Shown here one piece after another: positions 30,753 through 61,816 of a DNA stretch of 64,000 nt. Source of the stretch: an uncultured Candidatus Saccharibacteria bacterium (lineage in GTDB: Bacteria > Patescibacteriota > Minisyncoccia > Phycocordibacterales > UBA6899). The stretch covers positions 14,501 through 78,500 of the forward strand of contig CAYXYK010000001.1 in NCBI GenBank assembly GCA_964469335.1, read 5' to 3'. The notes below the pieces were generated by a model. That model saw only the letters and a program-made list of their open reading frames with translations. It was not told where the DNA came from and did no database searches. A program made the position numbers and the translations under genes. Numbering within the stretch: position 1 is the stretch's first letter; each line of letters starts with the position of its first letter.

Positions 30753-31046
30753 ATGAAGAGCTCAAAAGATATTCGTGAACTGGAGAAGCTTTCCGCTGAA
30801 CTTGCGCCCAAAAGCGGCTGCACAGTCTGTAGGCTGATCCTCATTGCGACGGTAATTTTATTCGTATCATCGGTATTACTCGCGCTATTTGCCCTCGGAA
30901 GTGCACGTTCGAACCTCGAACGAATGGAGCCAGAGCGGGTACTGACTCCAACACAATCCTCAGAGCGTATCCAGGTACTGCGTGAGTACATAGAAAGCCA
31001 ACGCGGTTCCACCACGCTTCTTATCGGTAAACCCCAAACAAAATGA
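30753..31046 (+). CDS. small single-TM membrane protein, hypothetical
   Basis: 97 aa, TM helix RLILIATVILFVSSVLLALFAL. Stop overlaps the start of the downstream giant gene (ATGA). Confidence 0.4.
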   Translation: MKSSKDIRELEKLSAELAPKSGCTVCRLILIATVILFVSSVLLALFALGSARSNLERMEPERVLTPTQSSERIQVLREYIESQRGSTTLLIGKPQTK

Positions 31047-34000
31047 AGCACACCACATTAGTGCGCGCATTCTTTGCCGTCATTCTCACTACGCTCTTTG
31101 GGTCACTCTTCTCTACTGCTTCTGCCGCAACCGTGTCGATCATCAATAACTGGCAAAACCCCGCGCCGTATTCTTTTTATAGCTACACGAGCCCCGTTCA
31201 TGTCGTCGGATCATATACCCTTCCCCCCGACTGGGTCGGCACTATATATGTCTGGCAGGACGGAGTACAGCTCCCACAAACGCTGACGGTCAGCAATCTC
31301 GGAGGAGTAACACCGAAAAATGCCCCATTCGACATCAATCTCGGGATCCAGCCAGCAGTACCTTCTCCTCATGAGATCAGTATTGAATTCTTTGGCGGAG
31401 CATCGTGTTTCATTCTTAATACTTGCCCCGGAACATCAAGCAACTGGACTGATGAATCGATCGTCCCGCGCACCTATACCGCATCGAACACACCGGATCC
31501 GGTGCTCGCAATTTCCTATGATGCGAACGGAACCATCCCGCTCCAAAGTCCTGCGTTCGATTTCGCCAACGTCCCAATGAACACGACCGACACCCGCACA
31601 CTCTATGTACGAAATGTCGGTGGTGGAACCGCGATTGGTGCTGCGTCTATCGCAGGTGGCTCCAATCCGTTCTATTGTGTCGGGACTTGCACCTACTCTA
31701 TCCTCGCCGGTGCCCCTGCGATACCGATACAGGTGCAGTATGCGCCCGGAAGTGCCGGGATGACTTCCTCCGGGGTACTCGCATTCGGCTGTACTTCCCC
31801 GAATTGTGCAGGGGTGAATGCAAATCTTACCGGAAGCAGTGTTGCATCCGCGGTTCCTCCGCAACTTGACCTCAGTGACAGCTATCTAAGTTATGGATAT
31901 GTGAACATCAACCAGTCAGTCGACCAAGATATCACCATCTATAATACCGGCGGCGGAGTGCTGTCCGGCTCGCTGACCTTCGGAGACCCGAGCTACTCGT
32001 GCATCCCAAGCTGTAACTACTCTATTCCCGCGGGAGGTTCATATACCCTCACTGTCAGATTCAACCCGACCACGGGTGGTGACCATGACACGAATGCCAC
32101 ATTCACAGGTGGTGCGACCCCTGAGACGATTGCTATCTACGGAAGCGGCAATGCTAAACCGATCATCGACATCAATTGTGTCGGGTGCGACGGCGTAGGG
32201 TCAGGTGGACAATACCACTGGGATCTTCCGAATCCGGTTGCGCCGGGACAGACTCTCTACCAGACGATCGAAGTCAGCAATGTCGGCGTCGGGGTATTGA
32301 GCGGCATTGTGACACCCACGCCGGGATCTTGGAACACGGCTGGTTGGCATTGTGTAAGTGTCACCCAAGGCGGCATTACAACGCCTTACACCGATGCAAC
32401 GCCGTGTGCTTATTCAAACCTCGTCAACGGCGGGCCACCCGCGATTGTCCAATTGTCTTTTGTCGCATCGGTTGCGAATGTTGGCCCACAGCATGACTAC
32501 ACATATTTCAGCAACACACCCAATCCGAGCGATGGACCTGACGACCTGGAACTTTCAGCTGCGGTGACTGTCGACCCATTACTGAATATCACAGGACTCG
32601 GGGGTGAACTTGTTTTCGTCGACACGCTCGTCAATGTTGCGACATCTGATCTCTACGGCAATGCAAGCGACGCAATTTTGCTTGAGAACGTCGGCACTAC
32701 ACCGCTCACGGTCGTGATCAATCTCCCGGTCGGGGCAGGTGTCTTCACCTGCGTCAATCCGCTTCAGTGCAACACACCGATCATCATCGCGGCAGGCGCT
32801 ACAGTTCCGGTCGCATTTTCCTTCAACCCGCCGACGCCATACTCGTACAACCAACCGTTCACCATCTGCGTCAGTGGAACCTGCGGCAATTACAGCATGC
32901 GAGGATTGGGGCAGAACCCTCAATTCGGCATTCAGTCGGTGATTCCGGGAGGAGAGAATATGGACCCGATGAAGATCTGCGCAGAGGAAAATAACACTTG
33001 CGCGTTCACCGGAACAAAGACCGTCTTTTTCGGCAATAACACCAAAAATGTTTCGAGGAGTGCAACCGGTGGGGTGTGGTGCGACATTGCTTCTTTTGGG
33101 AGTGACCCTGCCCCGGGTGTCAATAAATATTGCTGGTACGCGAACACGAACTCCGGGACTTGGACAAACAAGCCCTGGACGACAAGTAACCTGTTTGCGA
33201 TCTACAACAGTGGCATCGGTGGTACGATCTACTATAAGATCACAAGCCCGACTGATTTCAAATGCAGTACCTCGCGAAGTTGGTCCGGCTATTGCCAGGG
33301 ATATGTGTTCAACTATGACGAGCAGGATGTCAGCTACGGTGGTGATATCAAATATGCTCCCATCTACTTCAATCCGACTATTGCCGGACCGATCAGTCAA
33401 ACATTGACCATCCAATATCACTTTGTCGCATGGGATGGTTACAGCCCCCCAGATTGTAATTACTGCCACACAACGACTACGCCACTCACGGGAACTGGAA
33501 TCTCTGGCGCTCACCTATTTGCCATAACGACACCATTCCCCACCACCAATGTCGGCGCAAGTTCTACGGTGAATCTTACGGTATACAATGATGGAACAAC
33601 GGTAGATAATGGTGTCACTGTCAACTATGTGAGTGGGGAGTTCAGCTGCACTGCGAACTGCGGGCCATACAACCTCGCACCGGGAGGAAGTCAGATCGCG
33701 CAGGTCACCTTCAGCCCGACCAGCGCCGGCACAAAGAACGGAAGCTTCTTACTTACCTCAACGGATCCTGTCCCGGTCGGACCGGCAAGTGTCACTGTTC
33801 CGATGACAGGAGTGGGCAACGCGTCCCCTGTCGTCGGCATCCTCAATCCTGTCGGGGGCAGTCTCGACTATGGCGTAGTCAACCAAGGATCACAACGTGT
33901 CTCGGGGGATGGCACGCTTCCTGCGATCATCGTCACGAATACCGGGGCGGGACTTCTTACCGGGGACGCGACTCTGGTCGATGCGGTGCACTATGTCTGT

Positions 34001-34519
34001 GTCTCATGTCACTATGAGGCGCTTGCGAACGGACAGCAGCAGGAGATAAAGATTGCCTTCGTACCGAAAAGCGTCAGCCCTCCTGCCCTCAACAACACGG
34101 TGAATTTCTCGGGTGGCAATGCGCTGATCAATTTCCTGCTCTATGGACAAGGGGCACTTGGGGCATCATCGATAAACAGCCCCGATACGAATTTCGGCCG
34201 CGTAGTGATCCGTGCAGGAAACTTCAAGGAGCAAGTGGTCACCGTCTACAATCTTGGCAGCGTTGATGTCCCTGGCGGCGACATCTCACTTACTGGACCT
34301 TTCTCCTGCACACACCCGCCCACACCGTACAATGCCGTAACCAGTAAATGCAGCTACCCTGCTATCCCTGCAGGTGGTTCGGTACAATTCACCATTCGTT
34401 TCACACCAACTACGCCGGGAGCGGCGAGTGGAGTGCTCTCGCTTGGTGGATCATCGAATGCGCGGGTTCGACTATCGGGAACGGGTGTCGTACCGTCGGT
34501 AAAATTTAGAGAGAGGTAA
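31043..34519 (+). CDS. giant secreted cell-surface protein with at least 7 choice-of-anchor-D/ASH-like Ig repeats
   Basis: Signal peptide (…SLFSTASA/ATV), then repeated units of the form NxGxxxLxG…SCxYxIxAGxxxxIxVxFxPxxxG, e.g. IYNTGGGVLSGSLTFGDPSYSCIPSCNYSIPAGGSYTLTVRFNPTTGG. Confidence 0.75.
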   Translation: MKHTTLVRAFFAVILTTLFGSLFSTASAATVSIINNWQNPAPYSFYSYTSPVHVVGSYTLPPDWVGTIYVWQDGVQLPQTLTVSNLGGVTPKNAPFDINLGIQPAVPSPHEISIEFFGGASCFILNTCPGTSSNWTDESIVPRTYTASNTPDPVLAISYDANGTIPLQSPAFDFANVPMNTTDTRTLYVRNVGGGTAIGAASIAGGSNPFYCVGTCTYSILAGAPAIPIQVQYAPGSAGMTSSGVLAFGCTSPNCAGVNANLTGSSVASAVPPQLDLSDSYLSYGYVNINQSVDQDITIYNTGGGVLSGSLTFGDPSYSCIPSCNYSIPAGGSYTLTVRFNPTTGGDHDTNATFTGGATPETIAIYGSGNAKPIIDINCVGCDGVGSGGQYHWDLPNPVAPGQTLYQTIEVSNVGVGVLSGIVTPTPGSWNTAGWHCVSVTQGGITTPYTDATPCAYSNLVNGGPPAIVQLSFVASVANVGPQHDYTYFSNTPNPSDGPDDLELSAAVTVDPLLNITGLGGELVFVDTLVNVATSDLYGNASDAILLENVGTTPLTVVINLPVGAGVFTCVNPLQCNTPIIIAAGATVPVAFSFNPPTPYSYNQPFTICVSGTCGNYSMRGLGQNPQFGIQSVIPGGENMDPMKICAEENNTCAFTGTKTVFFGNNTKNVSRSATGGVWCDIASFGSDPAPGVNKYCWYANTNSGTWTNKPWTTSNLFAIYNSGIGGTIYYKITSPTDFKCSTSRSWSGYCQGYVFNYDEQDVSYGGDIKYAPIYFNPTIAGPISQTLTIQYHFVAWDGYSPPDCNYCHTTTTPLTGTGISGAHLFAITTPFPTTNVGASSTVNLTVYNDGTTVDNGVTVNYVSGEFSCTANCGPYNLAPGGSQIAQVTFSPTSAGTKNGSFLLTSTDPVPVGPASVTVPMTGVGNASPVVGILNPVGGSLDYGVVNQGSQRVSGDGTLPAIIVTNTGAGLLTGDATLVDAVHYVCVSCHYEALANGQQQEIKIAFVPKSVSPPALNNTVNFSGGNALINFLLYGQGALGASSINSPDTNFGRVVIRAGNFKEQVVTVYNLGSVDVPGGDISLTGPFSCTHPPTPYNAVTSKCSYPAIPAGGSVQFTIRFTPTTPGAASGVLSLGGSSNARVRLSGTGVVPSVKFRER

Positions 34520-49101: not shown

Positions 49102-50112
49102 TTAGGAAACTTTCACGATATTCATCGGAGTGCCGTTCTTGTATGCGCCAATGTTGTCGATCGTCACATTGAGAATTCGTTCGATCGCCTCTTGAGTATT
49201 GAACGCGATGTGCGCAGTCACGATAACATGGGGGTGATTGATCAGGTAGTGATTCGCGAGCACCGTCCGGAGACTCTCTTCGTTGGGGTGTTGTGCAGCC
49301 AATAGCATGTTCTCATCTACCATTTGCCCTTCTTCCTCAAGCACATCCAGTCCTGCTCCTGCCAATATTCCTTCTTCGAGACCCTTGACGAGTGCCACCG
49401 TTTCAACAAGGCCTCCGCGTGAGGTATTGATGAAGTAACATCCTTTTTTAATCTTGCCGATGTTTCCCATATTGATCATGTGGTGCGTGTGTTCGTTGTA
49501 GGGAGCATGCAAACTGATGACATCCGACAGTGCAAGGAGTTCATCGAGTTCGACATAACGAAAACCAAGCGCTGCCGCCAGTTCTGTTTTTTGGTAGACA
49601 TCGAATGCAACGACGTTCATATCAAAGCCTCTCGCCATTCGGATCATATGCTCGCCGATATGCCCCGTGCCAATGATACCGATCGTCCTTCCGCGCAAAT
49701 CGAAGCCACGGAGTCCTTCCTGTGAGAATGACCCTGTAGTCTCGATCCGCTGATACGCATCGACAATACGGCGAGAAAGTGCCAGAAGCAGCGCCATGGC
49801 GAACTCTGCAACCGTGTGTTCTCCATAGGTGGGGACATTCGAGATAATGATCCCGCGTTTTGCTGCTTCAACAAGATCGATGTGGTCGTAGCCGGTCGAA
49901 CGAGTGACGATGAATTTGATGTTGGGGAATCGATCCATAACATCCGCATGAACCGGAGAATTCACGAATACAGACAAAACTGTGACATCCGGGTCATGGA
50001 GAGCAGCGTTTTCTTTCGTTGTTCCTTTGATGAAATTGAAGATATCGTCAGGAAAACGTTTCGCTACATAATCTTTTTCCCATTCTTCGTTATAGAAATA
50101 GGCGATGCGCAT
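49102..50112 (-). CDS. NAD-dependent D-isomer-specific 2-hydroxyacid dehydrogenase (D-lactate dehydrogenase-like)
   Basis: NAD-binding GIIGTGHIGEHMIRMARGFDMNVVAFD, plus a catalytic Arg/Glu/His arrangement typical of the 2-Hacid_dh family. Confidence 0.88.
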   Translation of the reverse strand: MRIAYFYNEEWEKDYVAKRFPDDIFNFIKGTTKENAALHDPDVTVLSVFVNSPVHADVMDRFPNIKFIVTRSTGYDHIDLVEAAKRGIIISNVPTYGEHTVAEFAMALLLALSRRIVDAYQRIETTGSFSQEGLRGFDLRGRTIGIIGTGHIGEHMIRMARGFDMNVVAFDVYQKTELAAALGFRYVELDELLALSDVISLHAPYNEHTHHMINMGNIGKIKKGCYFINTSRGGLVETVALVKGLEEGILAGAGLDVLEEEGQMVDENMLLAAQHPNEESLRTVLANHYLINHPHVIVTAHIAFNTQEAIERILNVTIDNIGAYKNGTPMNIVKVS

Positions 50113-50474: not shown

Positions 50475-51617
50475 ATGAACTACCCCCGTACGCTTCGGGC
50501 CTTTTCTGGCAACCCGAGCATAGCACTTGCGCTGATCGTTTCGATATTATTCTGGCTCATTGGACTTCCCTTCACTCTTGGCGTTGCGAATGCGGCAACA
50601 GTGACCCAATTCAGTGCGACTGCATCTTCAAGTGTTCCTTCTGTGAGCACAAATTACACGATCCGATGGACGGACGCGACACAAGTTACTGTCGGCCAGA
50701 CCATCAAGATCAGCTTCGATCCGGGTAACAGCACTTTCGATCTTGGGGCACTCGCAAACAATGAGGTGCTAACAAGTGCTGTTCCGACGAACCTTTCGAT
50801 CATCACAGCAGCGTGCGGGGCGGTGACACCCAACCAGGTGTCAATAAATGCAGGAATCTCAAACTCTGCTGGGGATAAAAGCGTGACGCTTACCGCATGT
50901 GGGACAATTGCGACAGGAACAAAGACCGTTCTGTTCACAGGCAATCACGTTCAGAATCCTTCATCTCCGGGAACATACCCTATCTCAGTGGCGGGAACTC
51001 AGACGGACAGCGGACTTACCTTGGTCGCGATCACCAATCGCGTGACGCTCACCGCATCAGTCGCTACAAGCTTCCTCTTTACGGTGGCGGGGCTCGCCTC
51101 GGGACAAACAGTGAATGGAGAGACCACCTCGACAACCACAACTGCTTCGTCGATCGCATACGGGGTGCTTGCTTCGGGAACTCCGATCATTGGCGGACAG
51201 GAGCTTACAGTTGAAACGAACGCTGTGCAAGGATTCATTGTCACAGTGAAGGAAGACCAGAACCTCACTTCGAGTGCGGGAGGACAGATCTACACCTTCA
51301 AAGACGGTGGGGCGAATTCAGTCCCGGTAGTATGGACTGCGCCGTCAGGGACACTAGGCAACGCGCTCACCTACAGTCATTTTGGGGTAACCTCAGACGA
51401 CGCGGACCTCAACGCGGGAGAATTCGTTGGATCGAAATATGCAGGAAATTTCGCAACAACGTCACGGACGATTTTTTCGAACGCAGGTGCCGCTGACGGA
51501 GTAACACAAAACGTCGGCAAAGCACGTGTTGCGTACAAAATAGAGATCACTGACCTTCAAGCCGCGGGAAGTGACTACACGAACCACCTTGTATATGTCT
51601 GTACTCCTACCTTCTAA
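50475..51617 (+). CDS. secreted Thr/Ser/Gly-rich surface protein (hypothetical, possibly surface-layer or fimbrial-like)
   Basis: N-terminal signal peptide ending VANA/ATV, then a beta-rich low-charge sequence. No enzymatic motif. Confidence 0.5.
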   Translation: MNYPRTLRAFSGNPSIALALIVSILFWLIGLPFTLGVANAATVTQFSATASSSVPSVSTNYTIRWTDATQVTVGQTIKISFDPGNSTFDLGALANNEVLTSAVPTNLSIITAACGAVTPNQVSINAGISNSAGDKSVTLTACGTIATGTKTVLFTGNHVQNPSSPGTYPISVAGTQTDSGLTLVAITNRVTLTASVATSFLFTVAGLASGQTVNGETTSTTTTASSIAYGVLASGTPIIGGQELTVETNAVQGFIVTVKEDQNLTSSAGGQIYTFKDGGANSVPVVWTAPSGTLGNALTYSHFGVTSDDADLNAGEFVGSKYAGNFATTSRTIFSNAGAADGVTQNVGKARVAYKIEITDLQAAGSDYTNHLVYVCTPTF

Positions 51618-51637: not shown

Positions 51638-51667
51638 GAAAAAACCGGCATTATGCCGGTTTTTTTG
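51638..51667. terminator. bidirectional terminator hairpin
   Basis: gaaaaaaccggca-tta-tgccggtttttttg. Confidence 0.6.
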
Positions 51668-53315
51668 TATTCACATGGTCCATCGCATATTGCAACGTGC
51701 CCCGGACTTTCTTTCCCGGATTGAAAATATTCCCAGGATCGAAGATGTTCTTTGTCTCCACAAAAAGATCATACACCTCCTGACCGAACTCCTCTTCGAG
51801 ATATGGGGTACGAATGATCCCATCATTATGCTCACCGGTGATGACTCCGTGATAGGAAAATACCAGCTCGTAAACTTCTTTGCCGAGCGTTTGGATTATA
51901 TCCTTCGACTTCGGATCTGTGAGGTCCATGAGCGGGATGATATGGAAATTGCCATCGCCAACATGACCGGCGATCGTATAAATGAGTTTATACTTTCCTA
52001 GAATTGCATTGAGTTTCGGGAGGAACTCAGGGAGAAACTCAGGCCTAACGACGAAATCGTCGATGAATGGAGCAGTGCGTACACCATGAAGATTCTGACG
52101 CAATAACGCGAAGCTTTCACGGCGTATCACCCAATACTTTTCCGCTTCTTGTTCCGAGTGAAGCACACGGACCGGCACATGAAATGCATCCCGAACGTCT
52201 TTAGCCGCTTCCTCCGCGCGTTTTACCGCCGCCTCTTCTGTCTCGTCTGAGAACTCTGCAAGAAGCACCAGTTTCGGGACTCCTCCGGTCACCACGAGCC
52301 AGAACTCCGGAATGAAGCTGAGCCCAAGCGAAATGATCCCGCCACCAAGCCTCTTTGCTATCTGTGGAAAGAACCGCATCGCAAGAGTGAAGGTGTGGTC
52401 ATCATACGACTCGAAGCTTTCCGGCTTATGTGCGAGGACATGATTGACCAACTCTCCTAAAAACGACAGATCGTTGAGGAATATGGTCACCAAACGGCGG
52501 TGGGGGTTTGGCTTCACCAGTCCGAACGTAATCTCGGTATTGAGCGCAAGGGTGCCCTGAGAGCCACAAAGTAGCTTCGTGAGATCGAAAGTCCCCTTTT
52601 CTTTATCCATCACATTCCATAGTGCGTAACCCGACGAATTCTTGGAAACATTCGGTCTTGCCTTCTGAAGCAGCTCATAGTTCTTCTCGACCAGCTTGTG
52701 CATCTCTTTGTGGATCTTTCCGCTGCGAGTCTTTTCTTTTTCTTTTGTTTTAAGTTCGTCCATGGTGAGTGAACGGAATTCATCAGTACTTCCGTCATCA
52801 AGCACGACCTTGAGTTTTCTGACATATCGTTCTGTCTTTCCATACATCAGATTCTTCTCACCACCTGAATTATTAGCGGCCATTCCTCCGACCGCGCAGA
52901 TCTCTCGGGACGCGGTATACGACGGAAGGATGAGCCCACGCTTGAGGGTTTCCTTGTCGAAATCGCGATAGAACATGCCTGGCTGAACTGATGCTTCGTC
53001 CTCCCCCATCGAGATGAACTTATTGAGGTAGCGCATGCATTCAACTACGATCGATTCGGTGAGTGACCCCCCGGTCATGTCGGTACCTGCTGAACGCGCT
53101 GTGAGCGAGAGCTTCGCCCCTTTTTTGTTCTCGGTCGTCACGTACCGAACCAACGCACTGATATCTTCAGCATCCTTCGGGAAAGTGACCAGCTCCGGCT
53201 TCACCTCGAACAAACTCGTATCGTGGCTATACTGTTCGAGTATTGCCGGAGTAGCCTCTACGTCACCTTTGAAGAATTCTTTGATCTCTTGCGTTCTTGT
53301 GTTTTGAACAGCCAT
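51651..53315 (-). CDS. FAD-linked oxidase (GlcD / D-lactate dehydrogenase family)
   Basis: FAD_binding_4-type N-terminal domain (…ARSAGTDMTGGSL…) and an FAD-oxidase C-terminal domain. 554 aa. Confidence 0.85.
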   Translation of the reverse strand: MAVQNTRTQEIKEFFKGDVEATPAILEQYSHDTSLFEVKPELVTFPKDAEDISALVRYVTTENKKGAKLSLTARSAGTDMTGGSLTESIVVECMRYLNKFISMGEDEASVQPGMFYRDFDKETLKRGLILPSYTASREICAVGGMAANNSGGEKNLMYGKTERYVRKLKVVLDDGSTDEFRSLTMDELKTKEKEKTRSGKIHKEMHKLVEKNYELLQKARPNVSKNSSGYALWNVMDKEKGTFDLTKLLCGSQGTLALNTEITFGLVKPNPHRRLVTIFLNDLSFLGELVNHVLAHKPESFESYDDHTFTLAMRFFPQIAKRLGGGIISLGLSFIPEFWLVVTGGVPKLVLLAEFSDETEEAAVKRAEEAAKDVRDAFHVPVRVLHSEQEAEKYWVIRRESFALLRQNLHGVRTAPFIDDFVVRPEFLPEFLPKLNAILGKYKLIYTIAGHVGDGNFHIIPLMDLTDPKSKDIIQTLGKEVYELVFSYHGVITGEHNDGIIRTPYLEEEFGQEVYDLFVETKNIFDPGNIFNPGKKVRGTLQYAMDHVNTKKPA

Positions 53316-53405: not shown

Positions 53406-53777
53406 ATGGTGATGCCAAAAAAGAAGATGATTATTGCCCTGCTCTATATCGGGGCATTACTGTTGATCTCAGTAATGGGATGGTGCACCGTACACGTAGT
53501 GGATACTCACACACAAAATCGGATTATTTCAGCATCATCGACACTCATGAGACTTACACTCGACGAACTATCTCACTTCGATGGATCAAGTACGTCTCTT
53601 CCGATATACATAGGACTCGACGGCTTCATTTACGACGTCAGTACAGGGAAGTCTTTTTATGCCCCGGGTGCTGTGTACCACTATTTAGCTGGCAGTGATG
53701 CGTCACGGTCGCTGCGCATCATGGGAGCAGACATCATCAAACAAAAATATCCCATCGTAGGAATCATTGAAAAATAA
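53406..53777 (+). CDS. membrane-anchored cytochrome b5-like heme/steroid-binding protein, MAPR type
   Basis: LSHFDGSSTSLPIYIGLDGFIYDVSTGKSFYAPGAVYHYLAGSDASRSL matches the MAPR/PGRMC-type cytochrome b5 fold. TM anchor IIALLYIGALLLISV. The track ORF 53223..53777 begins inside the divergent FAD-oxidase gene, so the start was moved to MVMPKKK. Confidence 0.7.
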   Translation: MVMPKKKMIIALLYIGALLLISVMGWCTVHVVDTHTQNRIISASSTLMRLTLDELSHFDGSSTSLPIYIGLDGFIYDVSTGKSFYAPGAVYHYLAGSDASRSLRIMGADIIKQKYPIVGIIEK

Positions 53778-53854
53778 GCCGTACATAAAGGTCGGTTTCA
53801 GTATCCCCACCGTGATAGCGACACAGCGCATGCGCATGATACGATTTATGTACT

Positions 53855-55387
53855 ATGCCTCCATCAACACAACAGCATCGCGGTATCAATCTGTTCTATT
53901 TGATCCTTGCGATCCTTTTTGGCCTTGCGAACCTTTTTGCATATGCGGTGTGGTGGCCAACTGAAACACCGAAACCTGTCAGTGTAGTCGAAGCCCCGAC
54001 AATGATCACCGAACACCCTGAGGACCAGGTACTCGCCATTCAGACAACTGCGACCGCATCCTCATCGCTTCCGATCACTCAATCCACTTCGACGGTCTTT
54101 GAACTCATCAAGCCTGATGCAGAAGCAACGACCACTCTGACGCTCAATAAGGCGACAACTACGAAAGTAGCTGCTGCCACAGCAAAAACCACCACTTCGG
54201 TCGACCGCCTCTCTCCGACGACTCCGGGTGGACTAGTGGTACGTTCTGTCAGCTACAACCAGGTCGTTATCTCCTGGAATCCTTCAACCGACAATCGCGG
54301 TGTTGCCGGGTACGCGATATACCAAGATAGTGCGCTGATCGGAACGACGGTCAAGACCATCCAAGGATTCATCCGTCTTTCACCTTCAACGAAATACACC
54401 TTTGGTATAGCCGCCTTTGACTCTGCGGGGAATTCATCGAAGATCAACAATATCCTTGTGACCACCACTGAGAAACCCGCTCCTATTGCGGTCGTAGCGC
54501 CACTTCCACCACCTCCTCCGGCAGATCCGTCACCTGGCCCGCAATCACTTCTTCCGCCTCCACCACCCGCTGCACCAAATCTCTGCGGAAACAGTACGCA
54601 AGACAGAGGTGAAGAGTGTGACGACGGCAATACGAATGACAACGACATGTGCACCAACCAATGCAAAGCGGCGCGCTGCATGGACGGCATCGTCAATTAC
54701 ACTCTCGAGCAATGTGATGATGGAAATGAGGTCACAAACGACTACTGCGATAACCAGTGCCACAACCACGTACCGATCCTACCTGATGGAACCATTGCTC
54801 CTCCTGCCCCTGCCCCGTCTCCGAGCCCTACTCCCTCACCGACTCCAACTCCTCCTACACCTCCTCCTGTGGGAAGCTTCGCACTCACGGTCACAAAGAG
54901 CGGTTCAGGGACTATCACGTCATCACCTACGGGAATCAACTGCGGTGCGACCTGTAGTGCGAACTACACATCAGGAACCTCGGTCACACTTACCGAGTCA
55001 CCGAGCAGTGGATATATCTTCTCGGGATGGAGCGGCGCGTGCACCGGAAGCGGCACCACATGCACCGTCTCGATGACTGCGGCACGCAATGTAACGGCAA
55101 CTTTTGCGGTTTCCTCCTCTAATCCTGTCACCTACACGGTGAATGTTACCAGTGCGGGTAACTACAGCCCAACATCGCTCACACTCAATGTCGGCGACTC
55201 GATCAGATTCTCATACACCCCACCGGTCTCAGGTGAAGTCGTCACAAGATTCACTCCCTCAACCGTCTCAAGTGTGACAATTGACAGTGAATTCCAAAGC
55301 AGAACGAGGACATTCACCACAGCCGGAACCTGGACATTCAAGGCGACAGACCATAACGGTAACACTGGCACAGTCACTGTGCAGTAG
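53855..55387 (+). CDS. multi-domain surface protein: TM anchor, FN3 domain, Cys-rich (Myxococcus-type) repeats, Pro-rich linkers, InlB-B-like repeat, C-terminal beta-sandwich
   Basis: FN3 region LVVRSVSYNQVVISWNPSTDNRGVAGYAIYQD…KYTFGIAAFDSAGNSS. Cys-rich CGNSTQDRGEECDDGNTNDNDMCTNQC…CDDGNEVTNDYCDNQC. InlB-B-like LTVTKSGSGTITSSPTGINCGATCSANYTSGTSVTLTESPSSGYIFSGWSG. Confidence 0.7.
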   Translation: MPPSTQQHRGINLFYLILAILFGLANLFAYAVWWPTETPKPVSVVEAPTMITEHPEDQVLAIQTTATASSSLPITQSTSTVFELIKPDAEATTTLTLNKATTTKVAAATAKTTTSVDRLSPTTPGGLVVRSVSYNQVVISWNPSTDNRGVAGYAIYQDSALIGTTVKTIQGFIRLSPSTKYTFGIAAFDSAGNSSKINNILVTTTEKPAPIAVVAPLPPPPPADPSPGPQSLLPPPPPAAPNLCGNSTQDRGEECDDGNTNDNDMCTNQCKAARCMDGIVNYTLEQCDDGNEVTNDYCDNQCHNHVPILPDGTIAPPAPAPSPSPTPSPTPTPPTPPPVGSFALTVTKSGSGTITSSPTGINCGATCSANYTSGTSVTLTESPSSGYIFSGWSGACTGSGTTCTVSMTAARNVTATFAVSSSNPVTYTVNVTSAGNYSPTSLTLNVGDSIRFSYTPPVSGEVVTRFTPSTVSSVTIDSEFQSRTRTFTTAGTWTFKATDHNGNTGTVTVQ

Positions 55388-55474
55388 GATTTTTTCGCAG
55401 GAATATACGCAGAACCCCATATCTATCCACAGAATTGGGGAGTTTTGCTCACAAAATTGCTATAATTATGCGTA

Positions 55475-56524
55475 ATGCCACTTTTCATTGTCTTTTCGGT
55501 CGTTTTCGCGTCTCTTCTTGGAGCCGGGGAGTACATGAAGGTTTCTTATGTGGACCCTTCCACATTGCCGGAGCCAGAAGTGGTGACTCCCCCACCTGCC
55601 CCCACACCCGTGACCTCAATTCTAGGCTCTACCACCAATATCGCACTTGCGACCAACACCCCGGAACTTATGGTGCCGACACCATCGCCGCTACCCCCTC
55701 CTGCGCCACTGCCGGCCGTAAGCCCGAAAATAACCCCGGCGCCGAGCCCTGTAGTGCAAAATACCGACAAGACTCCGCCAACGTCGCCAAAAGGGTTCGA
55801 AGCGACATATGACGGAACGACGGTTCAGCTTTCGTGGTTCGCCTCGTCAGACAATATCGGACTGAAGGGGTACAAGATCTACCGTGACAAGAAACTGCTC
55901 GGCACAACGATTGAGACCTTCTATGCTGACCCGCTGGTGGCAAACCCTGCGTCACACTCCTATGCCGTGTATGCGTATGATAATGCAGGAAATCTCTCCG
56001 CGGGTCCTTCCGCAACTCCTGTTGCAGACACTCTTGCGATAAACACTCCGAGTCCTTCACCGACGCCGTCGCCAACACCTGCTCCTTCTCCTGCTCCGTC
56101 ACCAAGCCCTACCCCCACACCGAGTCCTACCCCTAGCCCAACGCCTTCGCCTGCGCCTTCACCTACGCCAACTCCCACACCAACCCCACCGCCACCTCCT
56201 CCTCCACCACCTCCTCCACCACCGCCACCTCCACCTGCAGCGGGGTGCGGAAGTGGCGGGACATGCTCCGCAGCAGATGTTGCTGCACATAACACAGCAG
56301 GCAACTGCTGGGTTTATACGACATCGAACAACAAGGTCTACAATATCACCGCCTATATTGCCGGGGGGCAGCATCCAGGTGGAAATGTCATCACTCCATA
56401 CTGTGGTACGAACTTTACTACATTCTTTACAGGCTCTATTGGGGGACAGAGACACTCAACAACTGCACGTAACATCGTCTTGAATCAGACCTCCGCCACC
56501 TACATCGGTGTGTACGCACCATAA
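55475..56524 (+). CDS. secreted FN3 / Pro-Thr-Ser stalk / cytochrome b5 (HPGG) protein
   Basis: Signal anchor, FN3 domain (GFEATYDGTTVQLSWFASSDNIGLKGYKIYRD…YAVYAYDNAGNLS), PT/PS repeats with an 18xPro run, and a C-terminal cytochrome b5 heme domain (VAAHNTAGNCWVYTTSNNKVYNITAYIAGGQHPGG…RHS) with both axial His. Confidence 0.8.
   Translation: MPLFIVFSVVFASLLGAGEYMKVSYVDPSTLPEPEVVTPPPAPTPVTSILGSTTNIALATNTPELMVPTPSPLPPPAPLPAVSPKITPAPSPVVQNTDKTPPTSPKGFEATYDGTTVQLSWFASSDNIGLKGYKIYRDKKLLGTTIETFYADPLVANPASHSYAVYAYDNAGNLSAGPSATPVADTLAINTPSPSPTPSPTPAPSPAPSPSPTPTPSPTPSPTPSPAPSPTPTPTPTPPPPPPPPPPPPPPPPPAAGCGSGGTCSAADVAAHNTAGNCWVYTTSNNKVYNITAYIAGGQHPGGNVITPYCGTNFTTFFTGSIGGQRHSTTARNIVLNQTSATYIGVYAP
56042..56246 (+). 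repeat. coding low-complexity Pro/Thr/Ser repeat including 18 consecutive Pro codons
   Basis: Translated TPSPSPTPSPTPAPSPAPSPSPTPTPSPTPSPTPSPAPSPTPTPTPTPPPPPPPPPPPPPPPPPPAAG. The CCN-rich DNA is a source of antisense ORF artefacts. Confidence 0.85.
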
Positions 56525-56538
56525 CCACACCACTGAAC

Positions 56539-57057
56539 GTGACAAAAAAGATCATTCGATTCATCACTCGACCCAGCGTTTCACTCCTGTTGATGCTTGT
56601 TCTTCTTTTACTGACGGCAGTATCGACACGGCTGCTTAGCGAGAACACACAAGAAAACAGGCGACTTGCATCGCTCGGGGTCGCACCGCTCGGTAGCGAA
56701 GTGTTCACTGACTCGATGTCACTTCGAGTCGAAAGTGTCCGAGAAGATAGCGTTGGTGCGCTCCCCTTCGTGCCACGCGACGGATTTACATTCATCATTC
56801 CGACACTGATTATCACCAACCTTTCATCAACTACTCGCGATCTTATCCCGACACTTGCACTCTATATCAAGGATCGCGATGGAAATGTCTACAACATGGC
56901 GGTCGCACCACTCAACACTGAGCAGTTTGGCGGACCGATACCTCCGCATGATAAAGTGAGACAAGAGATTGCATTCGAAGTGCGTAAAGATGCGAAAGGA
57001 CTTGTGATGTATTTTGAAGCAGGGGGTAAAGTGATGACGGAACGTCTCGAGAAATGA
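56539..57057 (+). CDS. DUF4352-like exported Ig-fold protein (hypothetical)
   Basis: N-terminal TM or signal helix, then a beta-sandwich-like region (…FTFIIPTLIITNLSSTTRDLIPT…KGLVMYFEAGG). Confidence 0.45.
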   Translation: MTKKIIRFITRPSVSLLLMLVLLLLTAVSTRLLSENTQENRRLASLGVAPLGSEVFTDSMSLRVESVREDSVGALPFVPRDGFTFIIPTLIITNLSSTTRDLIPTLALYIKDRDGNVYNMAVAPLNTEQFGGPIPPHDKVRQEIAFEVRKDAKGLVMYFEAGGKVMTERLEK

Positions 57058-57090
57058 TCGTTACAAAACAACCCCAAATAAACTAAATCT

Positions 57091-58482
57091 ATGAATTTTT
57101 ATTTTGAATTCCCTCGCTGGATCACCGAACCCCGAACAAGAGCAAAAACGTTCTGGTGGCTGATGTTCTGGCTTAACCTCGGGGTTATCATGTACATCTG
57201 GTGGAGCAGTTCTTCGCATTACTATATCGTCAACCCGGAGGGTGGAAACATGTATGTCGCACTCGGACGCCTGACCGGTCTGCTCATTCAGTACGCAATC
57301 GTCATCCAAGTACTGCTCATCGGACGAATCAGCTTCATCGAACAGGCATTTGGATTCGATAAGATGAATAAGCTGCACCGACTCATTGGTCAGTGGATTA
57401 TCGTTTTCCTCGTCGCTCACCCGCTCCTTCTTACCATCGGAAAAGCTGCTGGAAACGAGATCTCGATGTGGAACCAGTTCTCGGAATTCCTCGCCACATG
57501 GGAAGATGTCTTTCTCGCATTCATCGGGGCAAGCATCTTCATCTACGTCGCTTCGATCTCCTACGCCATCGTACGAAAGAAGCTCCGCTATGAACTTTGG
57601 TACTTTCTCCATCTTTTGACCTACCTTGCGATGGTGCTCGTATTCTTCCATGAGATCAACACAGGCGATCTGACCAAGTCCGCCGCATCAGAGACAAGCT
57701 TCATCCAGCATCCCTATCTCGCATATTGGTATGTACTCAATTTCTCCGTATTCGCTTTCGTTATCGTCTATAGATTCATGAAACCACTATGGAATTCACT
57801 CCGTTACGGATTCAAGGTCACCCATGTCGTTCTTGAGACCAAGGACACGTTTTCTGTCTACATCACTGGAAGGAATCTGGTTAACTTCAAATATAAGGCG
57901 GGGCAATATGCGAACATCACTTTCCTTCAGAAAGGACTATGGTTCACTCACCCGTTCTCTTTTTCTGCAGAGCATAACGACACCTATATCCGCTTCACCA
58001 TGAAAGCGCTTGGAGACTACACAAAAAGGCTCGGGGAACTCACCCCTGGAACACGAGTCATCCTTGACGGGCCACTTGGACTTTTTATCGAAGAAACTTC
58101 GCAGAACGACAAACTGCTCTTCATTGCAGGTGGTATCGGTATCACTCCCATTCGATCAATGATCGGTGACATCATGCGCAGGAAAAAGAACATCATTATG
58201 ATATATGCTGCCCGTACCGTGGACGATATTGCGTTTCGAAAAGAATTCGAACTCTTCCAAGCAAAGCAGCCTTTCCCGATCCACTACGTGCTTTCTACTC
58301 CGACTCCCGGTTACGAGAGTGGTTTCTTGGATAGAGAGAAGCTAGTGCGACTCGTTCCTGATTTCTTCGAGCGGGATGTATTTCTCTGTGGTCCTCCACC
58401 GATGATGGCGGCAACGGTCGAGAACCTGAAAGGACTGGGATTCAAGAATGTGAACCTCCACTATGAAATGTTCTCATTCTGA
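57091..58482 (+). CDS. ferric-reductase/NOX-family transmembrane flavocytochrome (FRD heme-TM domain + FAD-binding + NAD(P)H-binding)
   Basis: Six-TM ferric-reductase domain with paired His (HRLIGQWII…AHPLL; HLLTYL…FFHEI), FAD motif HPFSFS, NAD(P) motif GGIGITP, and a C-terminal CGPPPMM. Confidence 0.88.
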   Translation: MNFYFEFPRWITEPRTRAKTFWWLMFWLNLGVIMYIWWSSSSHYYIVNPEGGNMYVALGRLTGLLIQYAIVIQVLLIGRISFIEQAFGFDKMNKLHRLIGQWIIVFLVAHPLLLTIGKAAGNEISMWNQFSEFLATWEDVFLAFIGASIFIYVASISYAIVRKKLRYELWYFLHLLTYLAMVLVFFHEINTGDLTKSAASETSFIQHPYLAYWYVLNFSVFAFVIVYRFMKPLWNSLRYGFKVTHVVLETKDTFSVYITGRNLVNFKYKAGQYANITFLQKGLWFTHPFSFSAEHNDTYIRFTMKALGDYTKRLGELTPGTRVILDGPLGLFIEETSQNDKLLFIAGGIGITPIRSMIGDIMRRKKNIIMIYAARTVDDIAFRKEFELFQAKQPFPIHYVLSTPTPGYESGFLDREKLVRLVPDFFERDVFLCGPPPMMAATVENLKGLGFKNVNLHYEMFSF

Positions 58483-58528: not shown

Positions 58529-58783
58529 TCAGGTTGGTCGCTCCAGATCTATACCAAGAAAGTCAGGTGAGAGTACGGGGGGCTCGATCTTTTTTTCTAT
58601 TTTTACCGCAGGGCTCTGAGACAACCCCTCGCGTTCCTCGTCGCTAAGAACTCCATCTTCGCCGGGCATATCAAGCAGCGGTGTGTCGGTTCTGCTCACC
58701 TCCTGATCCTTGAGAAAAAGGTTACCTACGAAAGGATTTCCAATTCCACCTACGTCGTTCTGTTCGTCAGTATTGTTGCTCAT
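58529..58783 (-). CDS. hypothetical small acidic protein
   Basis: 84-aa ORF with no motifs. Coding status uncertain. Confidence 0.3.
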   Translation of the reverse strand: MSNNTDEQNDVGGIGNPFVGNLFLKDQEVSRTDTPLLDMPGEDGVLSDEEREGLSQSPAVKIEKKIEPPVLSPDFLGIDLERPT

Positions 58784-58864: not shown

Positions 58865-59527
58865 ATGGACCAAGAAGAACATGGACGATCGCTCGTCACC
58901 TGGGTCGTAGTAGTCGGCACACTGCTTGTCATAATAGCAGCGGCAAGCGGCTACGTGATCGCAAACCCAGAAAGCCTATATGAACTGTTCGGAGCCAAGG
59001 CTCCCGTAACCACACCAATAACGAATGTGAATGGCCCGGCACCCGTGGTGCACACACAACCCGCGCACACGAAACACTACTCAAGCATCTTTTTTGAATT
59101 CGATTATCCTGAGAATTTCTCGATCACAAGTGAGCTTATCAATGCAACGAGGACCGAAGATGGAAACTCTCGCGAGCTGTTTGGCAGTGCAGTGGTAATA
59201 CTCACCGCCACCGGAACCGACGGCACATATACCCTAAAGATCAACTCTGAAGTGAACTCGGAGCGCATCGGAGTGGAAGAGGCTTCAAGTAAGGCCAAAG
59301 AATCATTCGGAGCAAGACCCGACCGTGGGGCTAATGATTCATTTCAGAACATCACCGTAGTTGATCGACCTGGTTACAAATATTTCACTGAAGGAAAGAT
59401 CCATATTGGTATCCCGACAATGAACCTCAATTATGCTACGGAAATCACCTGGGACACTGTAAGCGGCACACGAGCGACAGCAAACGGCTACATCGGGACC
59501 CTTGAGGACAGCTTTACGGTAAAATAA
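58865..59527 (+). CDS. hypothetical membrane-anchored exported protein
   Basis: N-terminal TM helix (LVTWVVVVGTLLVIIAAASGYVIA) followed by a beta-rich domain. Confidence 0.5.
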   Translation: MDQEEHGRSLVTWVVVVGTLLVIIAAASGYVIANPESLYELFGAKAPVTTPITNVNGPAPVVHTQPAHTKHYSSIFFEFDYPENFSITSELINATRTEDGNSRELFGSAVVILTATGTDGTYTLKINSEVNSERIGVEEASSKAKESFGARPDRGANDSFQNITVVDRPGYKYFTEGKIHIGIPTMNLNYATEITWDTVSGTRATANGYIGTLEDSFTVK

Positions 59528-60047: not shown

Positions 60048-61070
60048 TCAGCGCTTGCGAAAATGCACGAAAAATGTCGTTCCTTTCCCTATCTTGCTTT
60101 TCACTTCCACTTGCGCACGATGCATCGACGCGATCTCACGAACGATAGCGAGTCCGAGTCCGACACCTTCTTTTTTATCCAGCGTATTCGAAGCTTTGAA
60201 GAACGGCTCGAATACATGAGGGAGGTCATCAGCGGGAATGCCAAGCCCCGTGTCACGCACAGAAAGTAGCACTTCATCGAATGTATGTTTGATCGCAACC
60301 TCTACCAACCCATCTTTCGGTGTGTATGTGATGGCATTTTTTATGATATTGAGAATCATTTCCTCAAGTGCAGTGACGTTCCCGTACACGACGGCTGCCC
60401 CACGGTCGACAAGCCTGATGGTCACTCCTTTTTCCCCGGCACGCTTTTGCAGGATGTTGATCGCTTTCGAAGTTATCTGGGATAGATTGACCGCCGACAT
60501 TTGTACGTGATCAATTTTATGCTGTGCAGTGGAGAAATTCAGGAAGAACTGGATAATCTTCGACATCCGATCAACTTCCTCAATATTGCTTTTCAGTACT
60601 TCGATCGCTTCATCGCGGGTAAGGTCCTTACCTCGCAGAAGTGCCACTTCGGAACTGGTTTTCAGTACGGAAAGTGGGGTGCGCAGTTCATGTGAGACAT
60701 TTGCAATGAAGCGGCGCTGTTCTGTGTGCGCTTTTTTTGCCGGGCGAAGCGTGATCTCGGAAAGAAAGTACGCAATTCCTATGAACACAAGAAGTCCGAC
60801 GAGACGAATGATCCACGATACTCTCATCAACTGTGTGAACATCGTAAAATCACGAAGCCCATTCGTGTCGATTGGTCCGCTCATGAGTTCGGAAAAAGTG
60901 CTTCTTGTCGCGTAATCGACATATAATCCCGTCAGGACGAATGTCAAAGTACCGACGAAGATGTACAGAATGGTGATCCGTAGTTGAGCCGAAGCAAAAA
61001 GATCGGTAAGCAGCCTATGCTTTAAGCGTATAACCGATACCGCGAACCGTTTCCAGTAATTTTCGATCAT
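60048..61070 (-). CDS. sensor histidine kinase (HisKA + HATPase_c)
   Basis: Two TM helices, H-box ANVSHELRTPLSVL, N-box IIKNAITYTP, G-boxes DTGLGIP and GVGLGLAIV. Confidence 0.9.
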   Translation of the reverse strand: MIENYWKRFAVSVIRLKHRLLTDLFASAQLRITILYIFVGTLTFVLTGLYVDYATRSTFSELMSGPIDTNGLRDFTMFTQLMRVSWIIRLVGLLVFIGIAYFLSEITLRPAKKAHTEQRRFIANVSHELRTPLSVLKTSSEVALLRGKDLTRDEAIEVLKSNIEEVDRMSKIIQFFLNFSTAQHKIDHVQMSAVNLSQITSKAINILQKRAGEKGVTIRLVDRGAAVVYGNVTALEEMILNIIKNAITYTPKDGLVEVAIKHTFDEVLLSVRDTGLGIPADDLPHVFEPFFKASNTLDKKEGVGLGLAIVREIASMHRAQVEVKSKIGKGTTFFVHFRKR

Positions 61071-61689
61071 GTTTTTCGTCTATCTTCCTGCGTAGGTTTT
61101 TAATATGGACATCGATTACATTAGAAAGCGATGTGTCAGCGAAGTCCCAAATATGTGCGAAGATGTCCTCTCTCCCCATGACCTGATTGGGATGACGCAT
61201 CAGATATTGCAAGAGTTCAAATTCCTTGAGCGTCAGATCGATTTTCTCTTTTCCGCGATAGGCTTCTCTCGTAACGGGGTTGAGAGTAAGATCCCCTACC
61301 ACAAGTTCCTCAGGTAAAGTGACATGGGGCCGACGCAAGAGTGCATGCAGCCGAGCCACCAACTCATCGAATGAAAATGGCTTGACCAAGTAATCATCTG
61401 CACCACTATTGAGCGCCAGTACTTTATCTTCGATACTGTCTCGGGCAGTAAGAATGAGGATCGGGAGGGTTACCCCCGCCGTTCGCACATCGGCACACAC
61501 CTCAAAACCGTTCTTTATTGGGAGCATCAGGTCGAGGATCACGACATCGTAATCACCACGACAAGTGAGGATGCGAGTCTCTCCTTTCCCGCCATCAGTC
61601 AGATAATCCGCTGTGAACCCCTCCTGCTCAAGTCCCGCCTTGAGCCCGATTGCTAATTTCTCTTCGTCTTCAACTATAAGTACTTTCAT
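61015..61689 (-). CDS. OmpR/PhoB-family response regulator
   Basis: Receiver domain (MKVLIVEDE…ILDLMLP…LILTARD…KPF) and a winged-helix DNA-binding domain (…VIDVHIKNLRRKID…VRGIGYTL). Track ORF start moved to MKVLIVEDE. The 3' end overlaps the kinase ORF. Confidence 0.92.
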   Translation of the reverse strand: MKVLIVEDEEKLAIGLKAGLEQEGFTADYLTDGGKGETRILTCRGDYDVVILDLMLPIKNGFEVCADVRTAGVTLPILILTARDSIEDKVLALNSGADDYLVKPFSFDELVARLHALLRRPHVTLPEELVVGDLTLNPVTREAYRGKEKIDLTLKEFELLQYLMRHPNQVMGREDIFAHIWDFADTSLSNVIDVHIKNLRRKIDEKHDRKLLETVRGIGYTLKA

Positions 61690-61816
61690 ATGTGGTAATG
61701 GTAACAAAGGTAGCGTGAACTTTTCATGAAGGAACACTCATTTTTCGCTCAATTGTCCCAGTTTCTTCATTATAGAACTTCATGAAGGAACGGAAACCCA
61801 AAATAGCCCGTATTTC

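Follow-up and report, generated by a model that had tools for sequence, protein, structure and literature searches.

Where does a bacterial NOX deliver its electrons, and could heme proteins encoded beside it and displayed on the cell surface be the recipients? This question is raised by five genes at positions 53406–58482 of a 64,000-nucleotide stretch (hereafter the window) of contig CAYXYK010000001.1, from an uncultured Candidatus Saccharibacteria bacterium (assembly GCA_964469335.1). A sequence-only reading of the window had proposed that these genes form an extracytoplasmic electron-transfer module, consisting of an NOX/ferric-reductase (FRE) flavocytochrome and two cytochrome b5-type proteins on surface scaffolds. 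All five genes were found at the positions it had given, co-oriented on the plus strand, as intact open reading frames (ORFs) with zero internal stops, separated in order by 77, 87, 14 and 33 nt; and every domain name it had assigned was upheld by Pfam and NCBIfam scans. Judging by its relatives, the host is a bacterium of the Candidate Phyla Radiation (CPR, or Patescibacteria), since the nearest named homologs of its NOX protein come from metagenome-assembled genomes of Yonathbacteria, Paceibacterota and other Patescibacteria. In our opinion, the locus is best read as a chain that takes electrons from NAD(P)H via FAD and two hemes to a surface cytochrome b5 and then on to an acceptor outside the cell, a reading to which we give slightly better than an even chance.

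The last gene of the cluster (57091..58482, plus strand) encodes the NOX/FRE-type flavocytochrome, or 'pFre', with six transmembrane (TM) segments, two predicted b hemes and a cytoplasmic FAD and NAD(P)H domain. Pfam matched Ferric_reduct at 60.9 bits, FAD_binding_8 at 36.6 bits and NAD_binding_1 at 55.8 bits; the nucleotide domain was strongly recognized by the last of these profiles, whereas NAD_binding_6, at 21.8 bits, fell under its cut-off of 22.2. The motifs HPFSFS, GGIGITP and CGPPPM are located at aa 287–292, 347–353 and 433–438, respectively. The predicted heme ligands are H96/H174 for the inner and H110/H187 for the outer heme, and these four His residues, together with HPFSFS, GGIG.TP and CGP, were invariant in 12 NOX homologs of 45–84% identity. 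Six hydrophobic segments were identified: five lie above the hydropathy threshold, and TM1 (aa 22–40, Trp-rich) lies below it and was read from the sequence. Each of the two predicted cytoplasmic loops contains four Lys/Arg residues, and the three outer loops, of 13–21 aa, contain none or one; by the positive-inside rule, this distribution of charge would place the FAD/NAD domain inside the cell and, at the membrane's outer face, the H110/H187 heme. The canonical motifs and the predicted cytoplasmic dehydrogenase domain bear out the earlier view of this gene as an NOX/FRE-type protein with a heme-bearing TM domain.

Among solved structures, its best sequence match is SpNOX (8QT6/8QQ7; E = 3e-27, with the phmmer alignment covering query aa 144–463). 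Both proteins have six TM segments joined on the outside by short loops, four His residues at identical spacing and a domain for FAD and NAD(P)H (PMC11564096, PMC11031084), and the spacing in the window protein (i/i+14 in TM3 and i/i+13 in TM5) is that of H69/H83 and H129/H142 in SpNOX, where the inner heme is held by H69/H129 and the outer one by H83/H142 (PMC11564096). On these alignments, the product of 57091..58482 is an SpNOX-like NOX/FRE flavocytochrome, and NAD(P)H-driven activity is predicted. In SpNOX the outer heme is strikingly solvent-exposed, the canonical O2 site was not found, and under anaerobic conditions electrons passed directly to cytochrome c at 124.7/min, a rate exceeding the 48/min seen with O2 and the 3.6/min seen with iron, and its authors explicitly raised the possibility of a protein acceptor (PMC11564096). 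SpNOX has no known protein partner; unlike it, the enzyme studied here has candidate acceptors in the same cluster. The question of the bacterial NOX acceptor is directly testable at this locus, because the candidate protein acceptors are encoded beside the enzyme.

The same enzyme could be a true NADPH oxidase, making extracellular superoxide or H2O2 for signalling or attack, with the b5 proteins in an accessory or protective role. The NOX-like catalytic core and the in vitro reduction of O2 by SpNOX at 48/min are in keeping with this explanation, which we nevertheless consider quite improbable, as it accounts neither for the b5 genes, conserved and in many cases translationally coupled, nor for the multi-b5 fusions described below, and many CPR bacteria inhabit anoxic groundwater or sediment.

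The candidate acceptor for the transfer route that we favor is the product of the third gene (55475..56524, plus strand), a stalk-tethered classical cytochrome b5 of 349 aa, composed of an N-terminal hydrophobic anchor, an FN3-like region with a match to CbhB, a stalk and a C-terminal b5 domain. The stalk is about 65 aa long and 92% Pro/Thr/Ser; its longest run of prolines, earlier given as 18, was counted as 17. Pfam identified Cyt-b5 at 35.3 bits (aa 266–334). The heme domain proper (56231..56524, plus strand) contains HPGG with the first His ligand, RHSTTA with the second, and four Cys residues (in GCGSGGTC, NCW and YCG). A comparison with solved structures matched it to the b5 domain of Scs7 (4ZR0, E = 6e-7) and to the bacterial cytochrome b558 of Ectothiorhodospira vacuolata (1CXY, E = 2e-5), with both His residues and the CW/CG cysteines in alignment, and both His and the Cys pair are kept across the partner b5 proteins of at least eight loci. 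The description of this domain as a bona fide b5 with HPGG and both His ligands was hence corroborated; it is a classical bis-His cytochrome b5 and a predicted heme binder. Cytochrome b558 resembles it in being a bacterial protein of the classical b5 fold with Cys residues at the positions of CW and CG; in contrast, it is small and soluble, with neither stalk, anchor nor NOX partner, and we take it to be periplasmic, with a disulfide. In the related loci, an N-terminal anchor precedes the b5 domain of each partner protein, and these single anchors, the FN3 domains, the Pro/Thr stalks and the conserved Cys pairs agree with the proposal that the b5 domains are extracytoplasmic; they are predicted to face outward.

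If the b5 proteins are partners of the enzyme, the genes should be found together elsewhere. Three close relatives (L001, L087 and L089) showed full synteny with the window, which extended to the divergent oxidase on one side and the kinase/regulator pair on the other, and the module recurred at NOX identities down to about 42–55% (L003, L007, L008, L011, L014 and L088). L003, with an NOX 55% identical to that of the window, encodes an MAPR protein, an FN3 protein with the head domain, b5 proteins of 604 and 203 aa, a DUF4352 protein and the NOX; L007 and L008 have b5, DUF4352 and NOX, with a second b5 gene downstream in L008; the b5 gene overlaps the NOX start in L011 and lies 1.1 kb off in L014; and the distant L088 reads b5-like, MAPR, NOX, b5-like, response regulator, kinase. 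Adjacency of b5 and NOX across diverged CPR lineages was also observed in L090–L092 and L095. Among the loci fetched by their NOX, with flanks of up to 10 kb per side, all b5 ORFs (5/5) lay within about 1.2 kb of it. CPR genomes commonly encode surface proteins that have FN3 domains and Pro/Thr stalks, and unrelated membrane and surface genes might have become neighbors by chance; set against this are the recurrence of the gene order at 42–55% NOX identity, the restriction of b5 ORFs in the surveyed flanks to the vicinity of NOX, the overlapping or near-contiguous NOX and b5 genes, the b5–head fusions, and an independent count in a preprint (bioRxiv 10.1101/2021.11.17.468889). These conservation data effectively refute chance adjacency, to which we assign a negligible probability.

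The gene for the stalked b5 is not always recognized in public annotation. L001 (GCA_031973135.1) encodes at 6349–7434 (plus strand) a b5 protein of 362 aa that scores 490 bits against the window protein, and the public calls show three short minus-strand ORFs instead (6450–7178). As genes with Pro/Thr-rich stalks are miscalled in this way, database surveys probably count too few b5 partners.

The preprint just cited, by Tamarit, Teakel and colleagues including Ettema and Cahill, described in its section 3.5 a CPR-specific operon of cytb5MY, pFre and cytb5-like genes, with cytb5MY denoting the MAPR-like proteins of CPR bacteria that possess the heme tyrosines (bioRxiv 10.1101/2021.11.17.468889). 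In that work, cytb5MY was co-localized with PF01794 in 29/36 genomes, with other b5-domain proteins in 28/36 and with a two-component system in 22/36; PF00173 occurred within 10 kb of PF01794 in 185 of the 1427 CPR genomes containing PF01794, the pairing being unseen outside CPR; and the authors concluded on an 'unknown CPR-specific function' (bioRxiv 10.1101/2021.11.17.468889). The window has each of these features: a PF01794 gene 3.3 kb downstream of cytb5MY on the same strand, an extra b5 protein with an N-terminal hydrophobic segment, a two-component system and a CPR host. The redox system had been called undescribed, which was therefore wrong as far as the cluster type goes: the locus is a member of the described cytb5MY/pFre/cytb5-like type, the discovery of which belongs to the 2021 preprint. 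The likeness extends to the MAPR-like b5 with heme tyrosines, the PF01794 protein, the TM-bearing b5 proteins and the histidine kinase/response regulator pair. A difference lies in the partners, as the CBLA/CBLB proteins of the preprint are barely detectable b5 homologs, whereas the window encodes a clear HPGG b5 (35 bits). In the preprint text available, no discussion was found of an outward topology, the DUF4352 protein, the head domain, fusions with several b5 domains, how the enzyme relates to SpNOX, or the swap of partners presented below. A search for later functional work on cytb5MY/pFre, or on b5-based extracellular electron transfer by Patescibacteria, returned none from the literature covered, which excluded subscription journals. 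What remains of interest is the mechanism, the question of the SpNOX acceptor and the multi-b5 surface proteins with a cupredoxin-like head.

A survey of gene neighbors provided a further view of what the b5 proteins may do. It comprised 80 species-representative NOX loci searched with profiles built for the survey, 56 of them non-CPR (Chloroflexota, Actinobacteria, Dormibacterota and others) and 24 CPR-type, the split being made by locus order in the homolog list, such that a few 'CPR-type' loci carry non-CPR bin labels. ApbE was encoded within 5 kb of NOX in 41/56 non-CPR loci and in 0/24 CPR-type loci; for cytochrome b5, the corresponding numbers were 0/56 and 4/24. Since ApbE accompanies NOX in the former and b5 in the latter, b5 holds the genomic place of a known class of outward electron carrier, and ApbE is replaced by b5 in CPR. 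The arrangement of ApbE, FMN-bind and PF01794+PF00175 has been named an 'MsrQ-like' extracytosolic electron-transfer system (Méheust et al., eLife 2021, PMC8238504). It shares with the cluster the PF01794+PF00175 family and a predicted path from NAD(P)H to an outward carrier; the carrier is covalently flavinylated there, as opposed to the presumed non-covalent b-heme carrier encoded here next to no ApbE or FMN-binding gene. No ApbE homolog was detected by jackhmmer in the window or in the b5-type CPR loci, except in L095, and Pfam scans of the cluster proteins showed no FMN_bind.

The second gene (53855..55387, plus strand) encodes a large surface protein of 510 aa, in which an N-terminal anchor is followed by FN3, DUF4215 repeats, an InlB B-repeat and a C-terminal head. 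The Pfam and NCBIfam matches were to fn3, DUF4215 (a Cys-rich repeat) and Flg_new_2 (InlB B-repeat); the protein has 12 Cys residues and one hydrophobic segment, at the N-terminus. Among relatives the middle repeats vary, and the N-terminus, FN3 and the C-terminal head are conserved. The earlier proposal of an FN3/Cys-rich/InlB-B scaffold with a TM anchor is right about the architecture; the notion of a mere scaffold does not fit the conserved head, which elsewhere is fused to b5. This head (55112..55384, plus strand) constitutes the last 91 aa of the protein and is conserved in the window, L001, L087, L089 and L003. Eight of the ten weak phmmer matches in the PDB were plastocyanin, pseudoazurin or amicyanin. 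An AlphaFold2 model, built from a two-sequence alignment and with a predicted local distance difference test (pLDDT) score of 78.9, was compared with the PDB using Foldseek, and the matches (E about 1e-5, TM-score 0.6–0.74) included plastocyanin, pseudoazurin, amicyanin, CuA, EfeO (7WGU) and FtrB (8VUK); for plastocyanin and pseudoazurin, the TM-score was 0.64–0.74. According to the model, the head has a cupredoxin beta-sandwich fold, without the type-1 copper ligands: at the ligand positions the window sequence has Ala for Cys, Asn for Met and Asp for the first His. No conserved Cys, His or Met was found across 71 members of the head family aligned with the window sequence, and the acidic/polar positions that are kept are D29, E42 and D58, numbered within the domain. 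A redox-active copper site was considered for the head and rejected; the fold is that of a cupredoxin, but the ligands are absent from all close homologs.

The head also turned out to connect the large protein with the b5 proteins. An earlier word-indexed protein search had given one match; an exhaustive HMMER search retrieved 122 representatives, 71 with the full domain, which was at the C-terminal end in 61/71. A genuine cupredoxin, P0244, appeared solely as a distant match. The full-domain proteins included 17 (of 71) in which one to five HPGG b5 domains are fused to the head. Four of the genes for such fusions were examined in their genomic setting, and three stand beside NOX genes: P0171 (two b5 domains and a head) starts 12 nt after the NOX gene, P0166 (five b5 domains and a head) overlaps it by 4 nt, and P0161 has ApbE and NOX as neighbors; the contig of the remaining one, P0144 (four b5 domains and a head), shows no NOX gene. 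The presence of b5–head fusions beside NOX ties the head protein functionally to the b5 proteins and the NOX. The metagenomic proteins P0144, P0164, P0166 and P0199 have four or five tandem b5 domains with Ig-like/InlB repeats in between and a terminal head, and no description of such poly-b5 surface proteins was found in the literature searched.

One of the fusion genes lies in a hybrid locus, L095, which encodes at 3956–12010 an MsrAB fusion, a pyridine-nucleotide disulfide oxidoreductase, the b5–head fusion, a 194-aa protein, ApbE and an NOX-like gene. This locus links the flavinylation-type and b5-type systems; in the 194-aa protein, between the fusion and ApbE, Pfam detected no FMN_bind. 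The MsrAB fusion, 3 kb from the b5–head gene, is of relevance to another explanation, in which the module supplies electrons to a specific surface enzyme, as MsrPQ does, for methionine-sulfoxide repair or for lipid or cell-wall modification. MsrQ, the founding bacterial member of the TM family, supplies a periplasmic enzyme, the usual clients of eukaryotic b5 are desaturases or hydroxylases, and the best PDB match of the window b5 is the b5 domain of the Scs7 hydroxylase. MsrPQ (E. coli YedYZ) is comparable in that a di-heme membrane protein with a ferric-reductase domain feeds an extracytoplasmic partner; MsrQ differs in having no fused FAD/NAD domain and in using quinol or Fre, and its partner is a molybdoenzyme rather than a b5. 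The cluster includes no conserved client enzyme, its conserved partners being only the DUF4352 protein and the cofactor-less head, and MsrAB is a neighbor in a single locus; we therefore rate the supply of a surface enzyme as a minor prospect, with little probability attached to it.

The first gene (53406..53777, plus strand) encodes the other b5-type protein that the sequence-only reading had named, a membrane-anchored MAPR-type cytochrome b5-like protein of 123 aa, or cytb5MY. Pfam Cyt-b5 matched at 27.2 bits over profile positions 1–54 alone, as expected of an MAPR-type domain; the PDB matches were Arabidopsis MAPR (1J03/1T0G, E = 2e-13), PGRMC1 (4X8Y, E = 4e-6) and the archaeal cytb5M (6NZX); and an anchor predicted at aa 9–27, following KKK, would have the N-terminus inside and an outward-facing domain at about aa 48–121. 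They uphold the identity proposed earlier. The cognates of PGRMC1 Y107 and Y113 (in FY..PG..YH.LAG) and a KY motif (KQKYPIVG) are kept in six loci; the eukaryotic MIHIR insertion is absent, and the protein ends about 12 aa past KYP. It has all the features that define cytb5MY, i.e., no MIHIR and cognates of PGRMC1 Y107, Y113, K163 and Y164, the last two being recognized through a short local alignment of its KYP to the KYP of 1J03. Tyr-type ligation holds ferric heme tightly and ferrous heme weakly, as stated in the preprint (bioRxiv 10.1101/2021.11.17.468889), and for this reason the MAPR protein is an unpromising candidate as a simple electron relay. It is also missing from the b5–NOX clusters of L008, L011, L014 and L090–L092, as well as L095. 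For these two reasons we tentatively assign it a heme-handling role.

Such a role is the starting point of a further explanation, in which the MAPR and b5 proteins would be surface receptors taking heme from the surroundings or from a host, and the NOX would reduce the bound ferric heme so that it is released and handed over for uptake. Tandem heme-binding domains on stalks are typical of the heme-relay proteins of Gram-positive bacteria (Isd/NEAT), and CPR cells probably need exogenous heme; both points favor heme acquisition, as do the tyrosinate ligation of the MAPR protein and the proximity of TspO to b5–head genes in L093 and L095. Reductive heme release was a matter of speculation in the preprint (bioRxiv 10.1101/2021.11.17.468889), and fungal FRE-related proteins together with extracellular hemophores mediate heme uptake (PMC9635878). 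The latter system, Frp1/Frp2 of Candida albicans with CFEM hemophores, is alike in coupling an FRE-family protein with extracellular redox-sensitive heme binders; it is eukaryotic, its hemophore fold is unrelated and its heme uptake has been demonstrated (PMC9635878), whereas no uptake component was evident in our cluster. The partner b5 proteins are, moreover, classical bis-His HPGG cytochromes, i.e., electron carriers and not transfer proteins; the MAPR protein is absent from many b5–NOX clusters; the cluster has no gene for a heme transporter or heme oxygenase and none of HrtAB/HssRS type, the nearby ABC/FtsX pair scoring as a generic MacB (MacB/LolCDE-like), the regulators being generic as well and no other transporter being present; and outside CPR, members of the NOX family are paired with flavinylated electron carriers and not with heme binders. 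On balance, heme acquisition appears unlikely to us, though it merits some weight. The TspO/MBR gene mentioned, for a tetrapyrrole-binding membrane protein, occurs near b5–head fusion genes on two unrelated contigs (L093:4830–5225 and L095:910–1335), and it could relate to heme or porphyrin supply.

The fourth gene (56539..57057, plus strand) encodes a membrane-anchored DUF4352 (Ig-like) protein (Pfam DUF4352, 30.4 bits). Its single N-terminal hydrophobic segment, following KKIIRFITR, is a predicted anchor with the N-terminus inside. The gene is found directly 5' of NOX in the window, L001, L003, L007, L008, L087 and L089, and in Paceibacteria-type clusters it is always immediately upstream of NOX. 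A comparison of the protein with the PDB gave no sequence match. It is possibly an adaptor.

These components could be assembled into the following route for the transfer of electrons from NAD(P)H to the cell surface. Hydride from cytoplasmic NAD(P)H would reduce the FAD of the NOX/FRE-type flavocytochrome, from which single electrons would pass to the inner heme (H96/H174) and on to its outer counterpart (H110/H187) at the external face of the membrane. The outer heme would reduce the bis-His b5 on its Pro/Thr stalk, and the b5 in turn an external oxidant, the leading candidate being a metal such as Fe(III). Cytochrome b5 has a midpoint potential near 0 mV, and routing through it would therefore disfavor superoxide and favor acceptors of higher potential, e.g., Fe(III) complexes. 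The acidic cupredoxin-fold head of the large protein would probably be the terminal binding or docking element, the MAPR protein could capture heme or load the outward-facing b5 proteins, the DUF4352 protein would act as an anchored adaptor, and the nearby two-component system would make the module inducible. The module might serve to assimilate iron, or to regenerate NAD(P)+ by acting as an electron sink. Patescibacteria have no complete electron transport chains and are thought to be fermentative (PMC7507113), so that an outlet oxidizing NAD(P)H would be useful to them.

Several points weigh against this route. To our knowledge, CPR bacteria are not generally known to make heme, and this is a four-heme-protein module. 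Heme loading, the transfer from NOX to b5, the identity of the acceptor and the purpose are steps that we infer. No positive residue precedes the hydrophobic segment of the stalked b5, and for that reason its outward orientation was deduced from domain content; the FN3 domain, the stalk, the four conserved Cys residues and the paralogy with the large surface protein suggest that it faces outward. The head has no recognizable redox cofactor site, and its putative link with metals derives from conserved acidic residues and from EfeO and FtrB as fold neighbors of a model. No iron or metal transporter is encoded within the window. A b5 neighbor is lacking in 20/24 of the representative CPR-type NOX loci, in line with the roughly 87% of CPR NOX without a b5 neighbor in the preprint (bioRxiv 10.1101/2021.11.17.468889). 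As most CPR NOX proteins have no b5 beside them, b5 would be an optional add-on and not a general acceptor.

A bolder version is that the module is an extracellular conduit of b hemes, in which an SpNOX-like enzyme would feed stalked b5 proteins (chains of four or five b5 domains in relatives) that end in a copper-less head binding a metal or the host surface. We put this forward as a speculative proposal that is more doubtful than probable. As a rule, chains for extracellular electron transfer are built on c-type hemes, and extracytoplasmic b-type cytochromes as carriers are unusual. The Mtr/Omc conduits of multiheme c-type cytochromes are similar in leading electrons outward along chains of hemes, to which the four or five tandem b5 domains in relatives of the module would correspond; they differ in that the hemes here would be non-covalent b-type hemes in linker-joined b5 folds, with no cytochrome c maturation and no porin. 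Conduction by tandem b5 chains is a hypothesis. If it exists, the b-heme conduit would be a cytochrome-c-independent and quinone-independent analogue of the multiheme conduits for extracellular electron transfer, an external electron sink for obligate fermenters and the long-sought class of protein acceptor of bacterial NOX. A conserved, inducible module that oxidizes NAD(P)H and passes the electrons to surface cytochromes would rank among the few membrane redox systems of Patescibacteria, with possible consequences for how these cells balance their redox state, obtain iron or heme, and interact with their hosts.

A two-component system lies 1.6 kb from the NOX gene and consists of a sensor histidine kinase (60048..61070, minus strand; HisKA/HATPase-type, with generic PhoR/PnpS/CopS-like scores) and an OmpR-family response regulator (61015..61737, minus strand; best NCBIfam matches RppA and CopR/CusR-type, all below cut-off). 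The position of the pair is kept in L001, L087 and L089, and a pair is located directly downstream in the distant L088. HrtAB/HssRS-like heme sensing and efflux was considered for the neighborhood and dismissed, as the upstream ABC/FtsX pair scores as MacB/LolD-like and is accompanied by HlyD, and the regulators are generic PhoR/CopR-like. Between the NOX and the two-component system, the window has an 84-aa ORF (58529–58783, minus strand) and a gene for a single-TM protein of 220 aa (58865–59527, plus strand) with no Pfam match; ORFs of similar size and the same orientation occupy this interval in L087 and L089, and there are none in L001.

Upstream of the cluster and divergent from the MAPR gene is a gene for an FAD-linked oxidase (51651..53315, minus strand), similar to GlcD, D-lactate and D-2-hydroxyglutarate dehydrogenases, with FAD_binding_4 and FAD-oxidase_C domains, a match in NCBIfam to YdiJ (N-terminal half) and no hydrophobic segment; farther away is a 2-hydroxyacid dehydrogenase (49102..50112, minus strand; Pfam 2-Hacid_dh). 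Pfam confirmed the identities that had been proposed for both. The suggestion that they supply the module with reducing equivalents fared less well, since their synteny with NOX is largely limited to the lineage of the window: the oxidase was near NOX only in the one lineage formed by the window, L001, L087 and L089, in L023 and, 2 kb downstream, in L003, and the dehydrogenase only in close relatives of the window. The association of the two enzymes with the module is weakly supported. A secreted or anchored protein of 380 aa with no family match is encoded between them (50475–51617, plus strand); it has a homolog in L001 (623 bits), and ORFs of 380 and 378 aa in L087 and L089 are likened to it by position and size alone. 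Other metabolic genes were observed in more distant relatives, with a dihydroorotate dehydrogenase directly upstream of the cluster in L003 and 8 kb off in L088 (18152–19204), and the NADPH-producing enzymes G6PD and 6PGD encoded just upstream of the cluster in L003, where the stretch concerned is 1209–4844. These neighbors may hint at cytoplasmic reactions that feed the module or depend on it.

The scans for tRNA and Rfam families in the window were empty and no rRNA was found; promoter and terminator scans of the window gave sites no commoner than in shuffled sequence. The remainder of the window is ordinary chromosome, with FtsK, RecA, several tRNA synthetases, MurD, GlmS and a MacAB-like pump. 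Its GC skew is −0.17 to −0.18 at 54000–58000, compared with about −0.04 elsewhere, and the plus-strand CCN/ACN codons of the Pro/Thr-rich stalks probably contribute to this negative value. Two further genes were noted: an IleRS of 1233 aa (17702–21403, minus strand) has a His_Phos_1 domain inserted in the middle of its catalytic domain (aa 593–757), and a large surface protein of 1158 aa with HYDIN/ASH-type Ig-like domains is encoded at 31043–34519 (plus strand).

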